From a virus: DNA of 64,000 nucleotides. The stretch spans positions 86,002 through 150,001 of IMG/VR virus record IMGVR_UViG_3300035152_000026; one strand, 5' to 3'. Positions 53,887-58,759 of this stretch are shown in pieces. The stretch's first letter is position 1. Each line of letters begins with the position of its first letter. Under the pieces are notes generated by a model that searched no databases, had not been told where the DNA came from, and saw only the letters and a program-made list of their open reading frames with translations. The position numbers and the translations under genes are program-made.

Positions 53887-53953
53887 GGGTTGCGATCTGG
53901 GATCAGGCTGGGCTCCAAATCCGGCCAGCGGGGTTCGATTCCTCGGCGGCCCG
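53887..53953 (+). tRNA. trnW: tRNA-Trp (CCA), compact D-arm
   Basis: Acceptor GGGTTGC/GCGGCCC, anticodon loop CTCCAAA, T-arm CGGGG-TTCGATT-CCTCG, CCA encoded. Only 67 nt. Confidence 0.5.
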
Positions 53954-53967
53954 CCATTCATAGACCT

Positions 53968-54038
53968 GCCTTCGTAGCACAACGGTAGTGCACCGCTTTC
54001 GTAAAGCGGGGATGACAGTTCGACTCTGTCCGTCGGCT
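53968..54038 (+). tRNA. tRNA-Thr (CGT)-like, with two acceptor-stem mismatches
   Basis: D GCAC/GTGC, anticodon CCGCT-TTCGTAA-AGCGG, T GACAG-TTCGACT-CTGTC. Acceptor GCCTTCG vs CGTCGGC (positions 4-5 unpaired). Confidence 0.4.
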
Positions 54039-54054
54039 CCACTGAAAGAAATAC

Positions 54055-54126
54055 GCGGGTGAAGTCACAAGGCGTGACACCTGTCTGCCAGGCAGGCCCT
54101 GGCGGGTTCGATTCCCGTCGCCCGCT
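54055..54126 (+). tRNA. trnG: tRNA-Gly (GCC)
   Basis: Acceptor GCGGGTG/CGCCCGC, anticodon loop CTGCCAG, T GCGGG-TTCGATT-CCCGT. Confidence 0.65.
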
Positions 54127-54139
54127 CCGCGAACGTTCT

Positions 54140-54174
54140 CTGGAATGTTGGCTCGATAGCTTGTGAATCGAGCC
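54140..54174 (+). repeat. solitary diverged copy (27/36 identical) of the 36-bp array repeat from 16-1165; forms an 8-bp stem hairpin GGCTCGAT...ATCGAGCC
   Basis: TCTGGAATGTTGGCTCGATAGCTTGTGAATCGAGCC vs CCCGGAATGCTAGCTCGATGGCTACTCAATCGAGAC. The substitutions are compensatory and extend the stem. Confidence 0.5.
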
Positions 54175-54240
54175 TCTGGTAATCGAATAGCTGACGATGA
54201 CGAAGACAGTACATGATCCTTCTCATCGGAGGATCATCTT

Positions 54241-54311
54241 GCCTCTGTAGTTCAACAGGAGAATACCGGGTTCTTACCCCGTTGATGAGGGTGCAATTCC
54301 TTCCAGAGGCA
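54241..54311 (+). tRNA. trnK: tRNA-Lys (CTT), atypical T-loop TGCAATT
   Basis: Acceptor GCCTCTG/CAGAGGC, anticodon loop TTCTTAC. Confidence 0.55.
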
Positions 54312-54315
54312 CCGC

Positions 54316-54401
54316 GGGGAGCGTCATAAGGCTGGATGGTCCGGCGAGCGGCTGTAAACCGTTTCCCATTTGGGCATGTGGTTCGATTCCACCGTTCCCC
54401 A
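54316..54401 (+). tRNA. trnY: tRNA-Tyr (GTA), class II (long variable arm)
   Basis: Acceptor GGGGAGC/GTTCCCC, anticodon AGCGG-CTGTAAA-CCGTT, variable arm TCCCATTTGGGCA. Confidence 0.55.
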
Positions 54402-54408
54402 CTAGCTC

Positions 54409-54480
54409 GCTGGTGTAGCACAAGGGAAGTGCAACTGCCTTGTAAGCAGTAGGTTGGGGGTTCGATTCCCTCCACCAGCT
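54409..54480 (+). tRNA. trnT: tRNA-Thr (TGT)
   Basis: Acceptor GCTGGTG/CACCAGC, anticodon ACTGC-CTTGTAA-GCAGT, T GGGGG-TTCGATT-CCCTC. Confidence 0.7.
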
Positions 54481-54484
54481 CTGA

Positions 54485-54558
54485 TCCCTCGTAGCTCAAT
54501 TGGTAGCAGCACCTGGCCGTTAACCAGGGGGTTATCCGTTCAAGTCGGATCGAGGGAG
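54485..54558 (+). tRNA. trnN: tRNA-Asn (GTT), D-stem with a one-base insertion
   Basis: Acceptor TCCCTCG/CGAGGGA, anticodon CCTGG-CCGTTAA-CCAGG, T ATCCG-TTCAAGT-CGGAT. Confidence 0.55.
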
Positions 54559-54626
54559 CTACTGGTAGTCAAAGGAAAGGCCCTCGTTGACTAACGCAGG
54601 ATCGTACTCTCAGGTACCTTAGAGCT

Positions 54627-55136
54627 ATGGAATGCGCCAAGTGCCACGAAGAGTTTCCTACTCGAATAGTCATAGACGGGAAGGTGCGGAACCTGTCGAG
54701 TCGTAGGTACTGCGTTTCCTGCTCCCCATTTGGGGCTAACAATCGGAAGAAGATCCACATCCACGATATAAGACGTAAGCCGACTAGGTGTAGGTTGTGC
54801 TCAGGGAAGCTAGTCCCCGGGAAAGGGGATGTATGCTACACCTGTCGATCTAGGATTAGGCGATATCGGGTGAAGGTTGCGGCTATAACCCTCCTTGGCG
54901 GAAAGTGTCAACGCTGTGGTTTCTCAGGGAGTCCAGCAGCCTTTGAGTTCCACCACAACGGTAAGAAGGACTTTCAGATCAGCGAGAACAGCAACCGAGC
55001 GTGGGCTGTAGTCAAGAAGGAAGTTCTGAAATGCGAACTCCTGTGTTCCAATTGCCATCGACAGGAGCACACTGGAGATAGGGGGGAGGCGTTCCTTCGT
55101 GCCGTAGCGGAGTACAGAGGGATGCCCCTGACCTGA
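54627..55136 (+). CDS. HNH endonuclease inserted in the tRNA array (homing-endonuclease-like)
   Basis: Cys pairs CAKCH/CVSC and CQRCG; FEFHH...CSNCHRQEH is the HNH motif. Local GC is lower than the flanks. Confidence 0.7.
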   Translation: MECAKCHEEFPTRIVIDGKVRNLSSRRYCVSCSPFGANNRKKIHIHDIRRKPTRCRLCSGKLVPGKGDVCYTCRSRIRRYRVKVAAITLLGGKCQRCGFSGSPAAFEFHHNGKKDFQISENSNRAWAVVKKEVLKCELLCSNCHRQEHTGDRGEAFLRAVAEYRGMPLT

Positions 55137-55138
55137 CT

Positions 55139-55209
55139 GGCTTCGTAGTCAAGTGGCAAGGCACGGGTCTGCAAAACCTGTATCGTGGGTTCGACTCCCA
55201 CCGAAGCCT
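55139..55209 (+). tRNA. trnC: tRNA-Cys (GCA)
   Basis: Acceptor GGCTTCG/CGAAGCC, anticodon loop CTGCAAA, T GTGGG-TTCGACT-CCCAC. Confidence 0.6.
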
Positions 55210-57361: not shown

Positions 57362-57435
57362 ATCCAATGGCAAGATACTCGGCTTTGACCCGAGCAATCT
57401 GGGTTCGAGTCCCAGACCCCGAACCATTCCGGCTT
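57362..57435 (+). tRNA. trnQ: tRNA-Gln (TTG), CCA encoded
   Basis: Acceptor TCGGGGT/ACCCCGA, anticodon CTCGG-CTTTGAC-CCGAG, T CTGGG-TTCGAGT-CCCAG. Confidence 0.65.
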
Positions 57436-57436
57436 C

Positions 57437-57507
57437 GTCTAACGGTAGGACCCACGACTCTGGATCGTGGTATCGGGGTTCGAGTCCCTGAGCCGGAGCT
57501 GCCACCG
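57437..57507 (+). tRNA. trnQ: tRNA-Gln (CTG)
   Basis: Acceptor TCCGGCT/AGCCGGA, anticodon CACGA-CTCTGGA-TCGTG, T CGGGG-TTCGAGT-CCCTG. Confidence 0.65.
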
Positions 57508-57509
57508 TG

Positions 57510-57583
57510 CCCCAATTGGAAGAGGGTCTCGGCTAAGGACCGAGGTGTTGAGAGTTCGAGTCTCTCCGGTGGTACGACGCCCG
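57510..57583 (+). tRNA. tRNA with anticodon AAG (Leu CUN reader if inosine-modified) on a class-I scaffold
   Basis: Acceptor GCCACCG/CGGTGGT, anticodon CTCGG-CTAAGGA-CCGAG, T GAGAG-TTCGAGT-CTCTC. Paralog of the CAG tRNA (shared D region CCCCAATTGGAAGAGGG). Confidence 0.45.
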
Positions 57584-57587
57584 AGTG

Positions 57588-57666
57588 GTGGAAGGGCATA
57601 CACGGCTGGCCTAAACCCAGCTGCTTCGGCGTGAGAGTTCAAATCTCTCCTCGGGCACGATAAGCT
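57588..57666 (+). tRNA. trnL: tRNA-Leu (TAA), class II
   Basis: Acceptor GCCCGAG/CTCGGGC, anticodon GCTGG-CCTAAAC-CCAGC, variable arm TGCTTCGGCGT, T GAGAG-TTCAAAT-CTCTC. Confidence 0.6.
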
Positions 57667-57672
57667 CAGATG

Positions 57673-57752
57673 GTGGAATAGGCATACACGTCCGTCTCAA
57701 AAGCGGATGCTTCGGCGTGAGGGTTCGAGTCCCTCTCTGAGCACGGACAGCA
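57673..57752 (+). tRNA. trnL: tRNA-Leu (CAA), class II
   Basis: Acceptor GCTCAGA/TCTGAGC, anticodon TCCGT-CTCAAAA-GCGGA, variable arm TGCTTCGGCGT, T GAGGG-TTCGAGT-CCCTC. Confidence 0.6.
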
Positions 57753-57770
57753 ACCAGAAAGGAGCGAGTC

Positions 57771-58319
57771 ATGGACACGTTGGTTCTCGATCAGTCCTAC
57801 TTGCCCGTGGCGCGGATCCACTGGCAACGTGCAATCACTTTGCTCTTCCTTGGCAAGGTAGAGGTCGTGGATGAATACACCGACAGAAACATCCGGTCGG
57901 TGACGTTCTCGATCAAGATGCCATCCGTCGTTCGATTCATCACGCGGATGCGACGAAAGAAGCGTGTCGTGAAGTTCTCACGCGAGAACGTCTACACACG
58001 CGATCACGGAAGGTGCCAGTACTGTGGAGATCAAGTGCCACGTCTGGAGGCTACCTATGATCACGTTGTGCCGCGAACGCTCGGCGGGCAAACGACCTGG
58101 GAGAACGTAGTCATCTGTTGCGTAGCGTGCAACCAACAGAAGGGTGGACGAACGCCACAACAAGCCGGCATGCGACTACGATCGAAGCCGGTGAAGCCAA
58201 AGAAGCTGCCTGACGTACACATCACAGTGACGTGGACGCCCGGCATGCCCGAGGCGTGGCGTGCATGGACATGGAAGGTAAACCAGGCGGGGCCTGGGCC
58301 TGCCTCGAAAGCAGCGTGA
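57771..58319 (+). CDS. HNH endonuclease (HNHc domain) inserted in the tRNA array
   Basis: CQYCG...YDHVVPRTLGG...NVVICCVACNQQKG is the canonical HNH motif. Confidence 0.75.
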   Translation: MDTLVLDQSYLPVARIHWQRAITLLFLGKVEVVDEYTDRNIRSVTFSIKMPSVVRFITRMRRKKRVVKFSRENVYTRDHGRCQYCGDQVPRLEATYDHVVPRTLGGQTTWENVVICCVACNQQKGGRTPQQAGMRLRSKPVKPKKLPDVHITVTWTPGMPEAWRAWTWKVNQAGPGPASKAA

Positions 58320-58363
58320 GCGCAAGCTTGGGGATCGAGACCTCTGCCTTCCGCATGCAGTTG

Positions 58364-58447
58364 GAGAATGAATCAGGTGTGGACCTGAGCCCGGTTGGAA
58401 ACCGGTGCGTGCGCAGCTGCGCATAGTGTTCGACTCACTCGTTCTCC
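58364..58447 (+). tRNA. trnS: tRNA-Ser (GGA), class II
   Basis: Acceptor GAGAATG/CGTTCTC, D TCAG/CTGA, anticodon loop TTGGAAA, palindromic variable arm GCGCAGCTGCGC, T AGTG-TTCGACT-CACT. Confidence 0.5.
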
Positions 58448-58525
58448 GCCGGTTCGGTAGTAAAGCATTCGGTTACTTCGCTTGAGGAGCGAGAGATGTT
58501 GGTTCGACTCCAACCCGGGTTACCG
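58448..58525 (+). tRNA. tRNA-like with anticodon loop TTGAGGA (GAG) and canonical T-arm GTTGG-TTCGACT-CCAAC; no acceptor pairing found
   Basis: The T-arm and an anticodon arm TTCGC-TTGAGGA-GCGAG are clear. The 3' strand CCGGGTT has no complementary 5' partner. Confidence 0.3.
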
Positions 58526-58582
58526 GTGGTGTAATGGCAACACGCTAAACAAACCGAGCGCATCGTTCTCCGAACCACTTTT

Positions 58583-58665
58583 GGAAGCGCTAGCCGACAG
58601 GTGACGGCACTCGGCTTGAACCCGAGCGAGCATATGCCTTGGGGGTTCGATTCCCTCCGCTTCCG
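58583..58665 (+). tRNA. trnS: tRNA-Ser (TGA), class II
   Basis: Acceptor GGAAGCG/CGCTTCC, anticodon CTCGG-CTTGAAC-CCGAG, variable arm containing GCATATGC, T GGGGG-TTCGATT-CCCTC. Confidence 0.6.
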
Positions 58666-58675
58666 CTTTCGCCCT

Positions 58676-58759
58676 GGAAGGTAAATTCGTGGTGGCGCGA
58701 AGCCCGGCTGCTAACCGGTGCGTCCCTGACGGGATCAGGTTCGACTCCTGTACCTTCCG
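58676..58759 (+). tRNA. trnS: tRNA-Ser (GCT), class II
   Basis: Acceptor GGAAGGT/ACCTTCC, anticodon loop CTGCTAA, long variable arm, T TCAGG-TTCGACT-CCTGT. Confidence 0.55.

Follow-up and report, generated by a model that had tools for sequence, protein, structure and literature searches.

The tRNA array units described in Mycobacterium (Morgado & Vicente 2018, 2019) consist of dozens of densely packed tRNA genes whose isotype order is common to phages and cellular replicons. Their most widespread embedded genes are HNH genes, which belong to the core of some groups (PMC5966550; PMC6409571); in one group the HNH protein is annotated as Cas9-like, and some units also carry transfer-messenger RNA (tmRNA) and translation-rescue genes. 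A second point of comparison is the homing enzyme SegB of phages T4 and T6 (Brok-Volchanskaya 2008, as cited in PMC6409571), which shows a significant association with tRNA genes, whose inheritance and amplification it drives (PMC13096335). We looked at a stretch of 64,000 nucleotides (nt), positions 86,002 to 150,001 of the IMG/VR virus record IMGVR_UViG_3300035152_000026 (hereafter the window, meaning this whole 64-kb stretch), in which positions 53887 to 58760 hold a dense tRNA array with two HNH genes, HNH1 and HNH2. Our reading, to which we assign a probability of about 0.75, is that the array is an inherited tRNA array unit, carried by a large, uncultured phage-like genome whose host likely belongs to the Myxococcota, and that the two HNH genes differ in kind. 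Units of this kind, with HNH genes among the tRNAs, are already known; the lineage is new.

Like the Mycobacterium units, the locus holds dozens of dense tRNA genes, its family keeps a common isotype order in phage-like and cellular replicons, and one of its HNH proteins, HNH2, is Cas9/IscB-like. The tmRNA and translation-rescue genes of some Mycobacterium units have their parallel in the relatives L016-L020 (L-numbers are the labels of related loci fetched for comparison), whereas ARAGORN found no tmRNA within the window. The differences lie in the phylum, which is probably Myxococcota, in the array family, which is unrelated, and in the HNH genes, one of which is a core gene in a single fixed slot between the Leu and Ser blocks while the second is sporadic and of a different family.

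With default settings, ARAGORN called 32 + strand tRNAs in the array (53880-58760), and a solitary tRNA-His outside it at 21179. The Rfam tRNA model (gathering score, 29 bits) placed 24 array genes at or above this score in a scan of the whole window, and focused scans added three more (Gly-GCC, 36.4 bits; Phe-GAA, 36.0; Arg-ACG, 29.0). The union of both programs at default thresholds comprised 35 genes, and four further ones were accepted from relaxed ARAGORN runs alone: Tyr-GTA at 54318, Met-CAT at 56774 and 56850, and Ser-CGA at 58273. The last three have same-anticodon counterparts in related arrays, with local scores of 26, 46 and 48, respectively, the null maximum of the shuffled controls used for such scores being 14-18. 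The counterpart match of Tyr, at 18, was barely over its control, whose null maximum was 14, and L015 carries a tRNA-Tyr at the same slot. In total, 39 tRNA-like genes with 37 distinct anticodons were accepted, all on the + strand; between them they serve all 20 amino acids. Their combined length is 2,926 nt within a span of 4,874 nt (53887-58760), or 75% of the span's DNA outside open reading frames (ORFs), and only five of the genes encode the 3' CCA. A tRNA array unit being taken as at least 20 dense tRNA genes on one strand, the 39 genes in 4,874 nt form one. The initial annotation, made from the letters of the window alone, had described a dense array of about 37 tRNAs; the array is real and was slightly undercounted, since that list lacked Ser-CGA (58273-58356) and one of the five Leu-anticodon genes. 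Its start at 53887 was also right: this is the true 5' end of tRNA-Trp, whose G73 and encoded CCA can be read in the sequence, and the ARAGORN frame is shifted by 7 nt. The features, from 5' to 3', are as follows.

53661-53688, +: sigma-70-like promoter TTGACA-16-TATTCT (10 of 12 matches), between the CYTH stop codon and the first tRNA
53887-53957, +: tRNA-Trp(CCA), G73, CCA encoded; ARAGORN 53880-53952 (shifted), Rfam 53886-53953 at 26.7 bits; counterpart score 32 against Trp of L035/L046
53968-54041, +: tRNA-Thr(CGT); ARAGORN, Rfam 56.0 bits
54055-54128, +: tRNA-Gly(GCC); ARAGORN, Rfam 36.4 bits
54241-54313, +: tRNA-Lys(CTT); ARAGORN, Rfam 59.5 bits
54318-54402, +: tRNA-Tyr(GTA), class II, low-scoring; ARAGORN -ps90 only, Rfam selenocysteine (Sec) model 27.6 bits
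54409-54481, +: tRNA-Thr(TGT); ARAGORN, Rfam 70.2 bits
54485-54559, +: tRNA-Asn(GTT), U1-A72, G73, cloverleaf of 20 pairs, acceptor stem reading as Asn-type; ARAGORN, not Rfam
54560-54626, +: decayed 5' part of a tRNA-Cys, from alignment with tRNA-Cys of L013/L015
54627-55136, +: HNH1, 169 amino acids (aa); phrog_2255, 4.6e-32
55139-55211, +: tRNA-Cys(GCA), starting 2 nt past the HNH1 stop; ARAGORN, Rfam 61.8 bits
55254-55326, +: tRNA-Glu(TTC); ARAGORN, Rfam 55.2 bits
55330-55404, +: tRNA-Pro(TGG); ARAGORN, Rfam 61.2 bits
55404-55476, +: tRNA-Pro(CGG); ARAGORN, Rfam 64.3 bits
55480-55551, +: tRNA-Ile(GAT); Rfam 59.9 bits, ARAGORN -ps95
55557-55630, +: tRNA-His(GTG), G-1, CCA encoded; ARAGORN, Rfam 60.9 bits
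55647-55675, +: tRNA fragment comprising the T arm with its flanks; local score 21 (null maximum, 15)
55722-55794, +: tRNA-Asp(GTC); ARAGORN, Rfam 48.3 bits
55840-55858, +: 19-nt hairpin repeat, copy 1 (GAGCGGGTGCGAGGCCCGC), 7 nt before tRNA-Ile(TAT)
55866-55937, +: tRNA-Ile(TAT); ARAGORN, Rfam 58.1 bits
55948-56021, +: tRNA-Phe(GAA), aberrant T loop AGCGTTA; Rfam 36.0 bits, ARAGORN -ps95
56045-56063, +: 19-nt hairpin repeat, copy 2, 4 nt before tRNA-Ala(CGC)
56068-56140, +: tRNA-Ala(CGC); ARAGORN, Rfam 56.7 bits
56307-56380, +: tRNA-Ala(TGC), copy 1; ARAGORN, not Rfam; counterpart score 40 against Ala(TGC) of L018
56381-56399, +: 19-nt hairpin repeat, copy 3, 4 nt before the second tRNA-Ala(TGC)
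56404-56476, +: tRNA-Ala(TGC), copy 2; ARAGORN, Rfam 55.5 bits
56480-56552, +: tRNA-Thr(GGT); ARAGORN, Rfam 55.4 bits
56559-56628, +: tRNA-Arg(ACG), 70 nt, reduced D arm; ARAGORN -ps95, Rfam 29.0 bits; counterpart score 32 against L015
56632-56700, +: tRNA-Arg(CCT), 69 nt, reduced D arm; ARAGORN, Rfam 26.3 bits
56700-56769, +: tRNA-Arg(TCT), 70 nt; ARAGORN, Rfam 27.7 bits at 56703-56770; counterpart score 26
56774-56848, +: tRNA-Met(CAT); ARAGORN -ps90; counterpart score 26 against Met of L015/L020
56850-56923, +: tRNA-Met(CAT), elongator Met or Ile2 type, CCA encoded; ARAGORN -ps95; counterpart score 46 against L015
56925-56998, +: tRNA-Val(TAC); ARAGORN, not Rfam; counterpart score 56 against L013
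57123-57197, +: tRNA-Leu(CAG), type I, 5-nt variable loop; ARAGORN, Rfam 51.0 bits
57200-57271, +: tRNA-Lys(TTT); ARAGORN, Rfam 56.8 bits
57275-57349, +: tRNA-Gly(TCC); ARAGORN, Rfam 34.0 bits
57353-57426, +: tRNA-Gln(TTG), CCA encoded; ARAGORN, Rfam 58.0 bits
57428-57499, +: tRNA-Gln(CTG); ARAGORN, Rfam 52.7 bits
57501-57575, +: tRNA-Leu(AAG), type I, A34; ARAGORN, Rfam 47.0 bits
57579-57658, +: tRNA-Leu(TAA), class II, variable arm shortened to 10 nt; ARAGORN, Rfam 49.1 bits
57664-57744, +: tRNA-Leu(CAA), class II, shortened variable arm; ARAGORN, Rfam 56.3 bits
57771-58319, +: HNH2, 182 aa; Pfam HNH_5 1.9e-16, HNH 5.6e-12
58273-58356, +: tRNA-Ser(CGA), A for U54; ARAGORN -ps90; score 48 against Ser(CGA) of L015, null at most 16
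58363-58450, +: tRNA-Ser(GGA); ARAGORN, Sec model 36.7 bits; counterpart score 59 against L013
58451-58524, +: class I tRNA with a GAG (Leu) anticodon; ARAGORN, Rfam 36.6 bits
58583-58666, +: tRNA-Ser(TGA); ARAGORN, Rfam 39.1 bits
58676-58760, +: tRNA-Ser(GCT); ARAGORN, Sec model 38.1 bits

Judged by their structures and their counterparts in related arrays, these genes form canonical cloverleafs, Phe, Tyr, the GAG tRNA and Ser-CGA being weak exceptions. Some of them look impaired: Phe-GAA at 55948 has its non-canonical T loop, the GAG tRNA has G-U pairs in its acceptor stem, A replaces U54 in Ser-CGA, and Tyr combines poor pairing with a low score. Even in small search regions the Rfam model did not see Asn, the first Ala-TGC copy, both CAT tRNAs, Val and Ser-CGA, and a minority of the set is thus non-canonical by this model. 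The first CAT tRNA (56774) appears initiator-like from its GCGGGG/CCCCGC acceptor stem, unpaired positions 1/72, A73 and encoded CCA. Of two further relaxed ARAGORN calls that we looked at, Val-CAC (55588-55681) was discarded as spurious, given its overlap with tRNA-His and the 10 stem positions that it leaves unpaired. Among the spacers, only 55631-55721 and 54560-54626 hold tRNA remnants, the other eight scoring at or below the shuffled controls, and the 166-nt and 124-nt spacers were ruled out as tmRNA remnants.

We located related arrays via the genomic context of HNH1 and HNH2 homologues. Collinear arrays were found at L013, L015, L016/L017, L018, L019, L020/L021, L034, L035, L039, L040 and L046, with the conserved isotype order Trp, Thr, Gly, (Tyr), Lys ... 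Arg, Met, Met, Val, Leu block, HNH2, Ser block. The same order therefore recurs at at least 12 other loci, on viral contigs as well as on Myxococcota chromosomes, as expected of a shared unit. L018 is a 105.9-kb IMG/VR viral contig, L019 measures 185.7 kb and L020/L021 96 kb, and L016, L019 and L020 have phage-like neighbourhoods. The arrays L034, L035, L039, L040 and L046 lie on contigs of Myxococcota metagenome-assembled genomes (MAGs), of 4.05 Mb for L035 and 355 kb for L039. In L039 the array forms an island of about 4-7 kb with a lower GC content (GC) than its surroundings and with cellular genes on its flanks, which indicates that the array and HNH2 cassette occurs both in phage-like genomes and in host chromosomes. 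These loci add a well-resolved tRNA array family for Myxococcota, a phylum whose phages are barely known.

Among isolated phages, the best match to HNH2 was found in Myxococcus phage Mx1 (OR576727.2; genome of 169.6 kb) at 51% identity, in a reduced arrangement made of a 74-nt tRNA-Leu(TAA), the HNH homologue (WNM70129.1) and a 75-nt tRNA-Leu(CAA). Mx1 has 22 tRNAs and a GC of 55.5% against 68.8% in its host (PMC10720576), and it resembles the window in this GC far below the host's, in its many tRNAs, in the position of the HNH homologue between tRNA-Leu genes and in a SLOG-domain protein common to both (43% identity). It differs in that its tRNAs are scattered, with no single dense array, and in its replication genes, which are not closely related. 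We rejected the idea that the genome is Mx1-like overall, and found no close isolate relatives; a megablast of the array returned a 73-bp tRNA match only, and the SNF2 helicase downstream had no relative in IMG/VR. The initial annotation had considered the set typical of jumbo phages (>200 kb), a label that the related contigs L018, L019 and L020 (96-186 kb) and the size of the Mx1 genome do not support. In Logan, this genome was recovered only as a contig of 12 kb.

The window also encodes a ribonucleotide reductase, a PolA-like polymerase, helicases, an exonuclease, a Sak4-like protein and a methyltransferase, and by this gene content it is a phage-type replication and nucleotide-metabolism module. 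We call the genome phage-like on the grounds of its PHROG-type replication genes, its IMG/VR relative L018 and the link to Mx1. The host is most likely a member of the Myxococcota, because of the chromosomal homologues of HNH2, the syntenic arrays in MAGs and Mx1 as the best isolate match. The syntenic arrays in Myxococcota MAG chromosomes, above all that of L039 with its cellular flanks, could also be taken to mean that the tRNA genes belong to a bacterial chromosome or plasmid and that the window is not viral, and the scanned ORFs of the window included no structural phage gene. Yet the window has a GC of 58.5% as compared with 67-73% in the Myxococcota loci, it contains PHROG-type genes including the Sak4-like annealing protein, a DNA polymerase exonuclease subunit and phrog_6721, the array of L018 sits on a viral contig, the neighbourhoods in L016, L019 and L020 are phage-like, and a cultured phage, Mx1, has the same tRNA-Leu/HNH module. 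A non-viral origin thus seems very improbable to us.

Both HNH ORFs are intact and lie exactly where they were first reported, HNH1 at 54627-55136 and HNH2 at 57771-58319, and the initial annotation had considered both consistent with mobile homing endonucleases that target tRNA genes. For HNH1 this view gains support. Its profile matches are PHROG HNH families, the best being the HNH endonuclease family phrog_2255 (4.6e-32), with no Pfam match, and its translation contains the motif CxxC...HH...N...CxxCH, in which the CxxC pairs are Zn-ribbon-like. Its GC is 53.3%, where the window has 58.5% and the array 57.9%, so that the low local GC noticed at first sight was correct. When relatives were compared for presence or absence, HNH1 was missing from all syntenic arrays and occurred among them in this window only, in accordance with a sporadic insertion: tRNA-Asn and tRNA-Cys are directly adjacent with no ORF between them in L013, L018, L019 and L035, and are separated by ORF-free spacers of 99 nt in L015 and 169 nt in L020. 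In the 67-nt spacer that separates tRNA-Asn from the start of HNH1 (54560-54626), the segments GTAGTCAA-AGGAAAGGCCCTCG align with the D-arm region of tRNA-Cys of L013/L015, with a local score of 13 against 6.7 +/- 1.2 for shuffled sequences, 0-1 of 2000 shuffles equalling it. This remnant occupies the position that the resident tRNA-Cys has in the relatives, and the intact tRNA-Cys that follows HNH1, 2 nt after its stop, is more divergent. The closest homologues of HNH1 (46-58% identity) are found in other, unrelated phage tRNA arrays, where their ends range from 8 nt before a tRNA gene through to an overlap with the tRNA start; the tRNA that follows is Cys in the contig pairs L007/L008 and L056/L057 and Phe in L058, and a distant homologue (L059, 40%) has no tRNA nearby. 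The sporadic presence, the tRNA-Cys remnant, the low GC and the tRNA-adjoining homologues together fit a recent free-standing homing-type endonuclease that travels with or beside a tRNA gene. HNH1 would have arrived together with or next to a tRNA-Cys gene, leaving the resident tRNA-Cys as the decayed remnant.

HNH2 gave a different picture. In every array examined, that is in at least 12 related arrays, it stands in the same slot between the Leu and Ser blocks, preceded in most of them by tRNA-Leu(CAA), and the sporadic presence and absence expected of a homing gene was not seen for it. An alignment of HNH2 from six arrays is ungapped over 166 codons, with a ratio of non-synonymous to synonymous substitution rates (dN/dS) of 0.06-0.3, synonymous sites near saturation and invariant catalytic and zinc-binding residues. 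The copies of L013/L015 are 81-84% identical to that of the window. Its GC of 57.6% and third-position GC (GC3) of 0.68 are unremarkable. The same slot across arrays and the strong purifying selection indicate, from these comparisons, that HNH2 is a positionally fixed, conserved core gene of the array family and not a recent interruption. That it is a mobile interruption, as first proposed, is not supported, given the fixed slot in at least 12 arrays, the dN/dS values, the Mx1 homologue and chromosomal homologues of 62-70% identity in Myxococcaceae and Polyangia genomes (Myxococcota). In a neighbour-joining tree without support values, the array copies form a basal grade and the chromosomal copies one tight nested clade, an order that is suggestive only.

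The two genes could nevertheless both be selfish homing endonucleases that invaded the array and target its tRNA genes. Both are intact HNH nucleases inside a tRNA array, HNH1 fits such a role well, T4/T6 SegB (PMC13096335) and cluster M mycobacteriophages (PMC5966550) document homing enzymes in phage tRNA regions, and the array and HNH2 cassette is present in unrelated genomic backgrounds. We consider this unlikely, as HNH2 shows no presence/absence polymorphism and keeps one slot in at least 12 arrays, its dN/dS is low with synonymous sites near saturation, its GC is normal and its close homologues are stable chromosomal genes. Our preferred reading is rather a natural contrast within one array, between HNH1 as a recent invader with the remnant of a displaced tRNA and HNH2 as a long-domesticated core gene. 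Both resemble SegB, a GIY-YIG enzyme, in that a nuclease gene lies among phage tRNA genes, HNH1 also in being sporadic and directly against a tRNA gene, and HNH2 in the role that we propose for it, the promotion of the inheritance or amplification of neighbouring tRNAs; they differ in being HNH enzymes. Like T4 SegB, HNH2 may have the DNA of the array region as its substrate and thereby favour inheritance, spread or rearrangement of the cassette. Such a role would account for the same cassette being found in different phage backbones and in Myxococcota chromosomal islands. HNH2 and its Mx1 homologue offer a tractable route to the function of array-resident HNH nucleases.

As for its fold, HNH2 matches Pfam HNH_5 and HNH (E-values in the list above) as well as the HNH regions of NCBIfam Cas9d and IscB, and PDB sequence matches were the HNH domains of Cas9d, IscB and Cas9 and the Geobacter Gme nickase. 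The motif CxxC...DH...N...CxxCN is intact and invariant across 35 homologues. In an AlphaFold2 model the HNH core has a predicted local distance difference test score (pLDDT) above 93, the N-terminal 60 residues being of moderate to low confidence, and Foldseek placed the core on the Cas9d HNH with a root-mean-square deviation of 1.0-1.7 Å and 38% identity. The predicted fold is thus that of a beta-beta-alpha-metal HNH nuclease of Cas9/IscB-like type with a zinc site. IshB, which combines a PLMP and an HNH domain in about 180 aa, belongs to the IscB/Cas9 lineage (Altae-Tran 2021, as presented in PMC10734217 and PMC11610941). HNH2 resembles it in its 182 aa with a short N-terminal domain before the HNH, and in an HNH that is closest to those of Cas9d, IscB and Cas9. 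We looked for PLMP or RRXRR in the HNH2 family and obtained no Pfam match in 35 members and no PDB-sequence or fold match. No IS200/605 context was found either, tRNA genes flanking the HNH2 gene in all arrays, and no non-tRNA Rfam match pointed to an omega-RNA-like element. The motif VLD.SY.PV...RA..LL..GK.EVV of HNH2 may resemble PLMP. With a PLMP domain not demonstrable and no transposon or omega-RNA context, we do not class HNH2 as an IshB. A link to SelA was also dropped; a selA gene lies beside one chromosomal homologue (L053/L054), an arrangement not conserved at any other locus.

At its 3' end, the HNH2 ORF extends 47 nt into tRNA-Ser(CGA), whereas 56 nt separate the two in L015. The last 16 residues of the HNH2 of the window are unique. 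The overlap and the unique C-terminus suggest that a deletion of about 100 nt fused the gene end to the tRNA. Excision of tRNA-Ser(CGA) would take the HNH2 stop codon off the mRNA.

We then looked at the Leu-anticodon tRNAs that have no long variable arm. Two of them, Leu(CAG) (57123) and Leu(AAG) (57501), are type I tRNAs, each of 75 nt and with a variable loop of 4-5 nt. Together with those of eight related arrays and Mx1 they make a set of 23 short Leu tRNAs, which share a Leu-type D arm with a 3-bp stem and the loop xAAYUGGNAGA, as in E. coli tRNALeu. U8, A14, A15, a U ending the variable loop and A73 are invariant or nearly so in the 23. In E. coli, Leu identity is defined by A73, A15-U48 and G18G19, the long arm being dispensable (PMC9976931), and the type I set keeps the E. 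coli determinants A73, A14, A15-U48 and G18G19 in a Leu-type D loop. The stems covary, with 97.4% of cells paired and double changes in 17 of 20 pairs, for a covariation score of 0.79 against 0.20 in shuffled and at most 0.14 in slid controls. Such strong covariation indicates that the type I tRNALeu are kept as functional tRNAs. A type I Leu(TAA) in L013/L015 lies at the orthologous slot of the class II Leu(TAA) of the window and shares its acceptor and T arms, which shows that the switch between the two forms took place within this clade. A chromosomal type I tRNALeu(CAA) of Streptomyces coelicolor is charged by its own leucyl-tRNA synthetase (LeuRS) and not by that of E. coli (PMC6614811). 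The present case is alike in that the arm-less form coexists with class II forms, in S. coelicolor under one LeuRS, and differs in that the type I genes are phage- or array-borne and have up to six anticodons.

The GAG tRNA at 58451 was rejected as a member of the short Leu set, as it has another D arm and a 3' half identical to that of the Phe(GAA) of L018. Its acceptor stem contains four G-U pairs, and it looks like a remoulded or decaying copy. That loss of the variable arm is special to this lineage was also rejected, by its wide occurrence in phages. The Leu D-arm motif was found on at least 120 IMG/VR contigs (L061-L180), 109 of the 127 matches listed being in Leu-anticodon tRNAs of 74-78 nt, and among the matches listed the IMG/VR loci hold 173 short and 30 long Leu tRNAs. 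In isolates (INPHARED hits H35-H74, plus L181 and L182; lengths of 73-78 nt), short tRNA-Leu genes are annotated in phages of Erwinia, Enterobacter, Synechococcus, Prochlorococcus, Sinorhizobium, Pseudomonas, Streptomyces, Gordonia, Rhodococcus and Vibrio, and Erwinia phage Hena2 has three of 77-78 nt beside a 93-nt tRNA-Ser. We found no discussion of phage type I tRNALeu in the searchable literature, and their commonness bears on tRNA identity rules and on defence nucleases that cut variable loops. A G1-U72 wobble pair tops the acceptor stem in 14 of the 23 type I tRNA-Leu, including both in the window. The A34 of tRNA-Leu(AAG) is unusual in bacteria outside tRNA-Arg(ACG). This gene (57501-57575; also L013 2617-2692) replaces the tRNA-Leu(TAG) of other relatives, and if its A34 is deaminated it would read CTA too, one of the five otherwise unread codons.

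With regard to its role, the array reads 56 of the 61 sense codons under standard wobble rules, or 90% of phage codon usage, and its description as a near-complete decoding set stands. The GC of the window, 58.5%, contrasts with 67-73% in the loci of Myxococcota, the likely hosts. A comparison of phage genes with 56 Myxococcota genes showed that every A-ending codon is commoner in the phage, by 1.4-9.7-fold (most 2-10-fold; GGA, 1.4), and the array has U34 tRNAs for 12 of the 14 NNA codons, matching these phage-enriched codons. The missing anticodons GGC, CTC, CCC, GGG, CCG and CAC go with codons that the host prefers (phage/host ratio, 0.45-0.73), and the missing GAC reads GTC, which is unbiased (1.01); a one-sided Mann-Whitney test gave p = 0.017. 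These codon data support a supply of poorly matched tRNAs. The sigma-70-like site at 53661-53688 is the sole promoter-like site in 53400-59000, and a sequence scan, with weak statistics, found no convincing + strand terminator inside the array; one promoter and no inner terminator fit a polycistronic precursor that includes both ORFs. One long precursor would then start at this promoter and be processed by host RNase P, RNase Z and CCA-adding enzyme. The array would supply tRNAs for all 20 amino acids, in particular U34 tRNAs for A-ending codons, and would make phage translation less dependent on a host tRNA pool that is poorly matched, depleted or attacked.

The breadth of the tRNA set exceeds what codon bias needs, and with the retention of tRNAs in L019 described below this makes insurance against depletion or cleavage of host tRNAs a live alternative. 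In its stronger form, the array would be mainly an anti-defence device that replaces cut or depleted host tRNAs, the type I tRNALeu being variants that a nuclease does not recognise. The 56 of 61 codons read go beyond codon-bias need, tRNA array units have been discussed as putative anti-defence systems (PMC12803027), and Septu and retron-Eco7 cleave the variable loop of class II tRNATyr, from which the T5 tRNATyr escapes by a different loop (PMC13096335). The covariation of the type I tRNALeu (97.4%, 17 of 20 pairs), their retained E. coli Leu identity determinants and the type I forms in the class II Leu(TAA) slot of L013 and L015 agree with this. However, no nuclease is known that acts on the tRNALeu variable arm, nor did we find one; the long arms of Ser and Tyr are retained, as expected from identity rules, which gives no support; type I tRNALeu occur in phages of many unrelated hosts and may reflect relaxed constraint or streamlining; and the E. 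coli LeuRS failed on the one bacterial type I tRNALeu tested (PMC6614811). A mainly anti-defence array is thus doubtful. A still bolder picture, which we hold to be quite improbable, is that the array and HNH2 would be a self-maintaining mobile unit moving between myxophages and Myxococcota with HNH2 as its engine, in which type I tRNALeu replace class II forms stepwise and so escape arm-recognising nucleases; if true, phage type I tRNALeu would be an unrecognised class of anti-defence tRNAs.

Several points weigh against our reading of an inherited array unit in a phage-like genome of a Myxococcota host. The ORFs of the window that we scanned include no recognised capsid or tail gene, and the DNA polymerase of the window has no close isolate-phage relative, its best matches being at 24-29% identity with Mx1 not among the top hits listed. 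The host assignment is indirect. The chromosomal homologues of HNH2 are single-copy genes in housekeeping neighbourhoods, with host-like GC3 and no tRNAs nearby, a setting that, by this context, fits a cellular function at least as well as homing, and the SegB-like, DNA-targeting role of HNH2 is pure inference by analogy. The single promoter match is within chance, shuffled sequences averaging 1.8 sites. Phe, Tyr, the GAG tRNA and Ser-CGA are structurally weak and may be decaying. Finally, codon compensation fails to explain the lost tRNAs, since L019, with a GC of about 53%, keeps tRNAs for G/C-ending codons.

Some smaller features of the array were also observed. The 19-nt hairpin GAGCGGGTGGAAGGCCCGC has three copies in the window, all within the array, against 0.04 expected by chance, and each lies 4-7 nt 5' of a tRNA (Ile-TAT, Ala-CGC and the second Ala-TGC). 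It was not found in the first 60 related loci fetched (L001-L060), and could be a processing signal or the footprint of tRNA duplication or insertion. The tRNA fragment at 55647-55675 sits in a 91-nt spacer that is absent from L013 and L015. The three tRNA-Arg genes at 56559-56769 are 69-70 nt long and have reduced D arms with D loops of 3-7 nt; short Arg tRNAs occur in related arrays too, as an Arg-CCG of 71 nt in L016 and an Arg-ACG of 70 nt, twice, in L034.

Elsewhere in the window, an 868-aa protein (45486-48092, +) matches Pfam MVP_shoulder (3.2e-30) and the Vault_3 repeat (2.5e-9) and has no PHROG match; by these profiles, a phage-like genome here encodes a homologue of the eukaryotic major vault protein. 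A vWA/TROVE (Ro60-like) gene lies near the tRNA arrays of L016 (6050-7711), L019 (10179-11915) and L020 (10247-11902) and near tRNAs of Mx1 (L052 1873-3522), and the window is without one. In the region 19622-21253 (+), a 510-aa protein has a C-terminal T5orf172/MUG113 (GIY-YIG-like) domain and a low GC3 of 0.55. Its gene ends 24 nt before the solitary tRNA-His(GTG) at 21179-21253, which is a diverged second copy of the array tRNA-His, and the two may be a third nuclease-tRNA pairing. A CYTH-domain protein (phrog_6660; 53182-53664, +) is encoded directly 5' of the array, and its distant homologues (27-33%) lie near tRNA genes, at about 0.1-7.6 kb, on three of six unrelated IMG/VR contigs (L001, L005 and L006).

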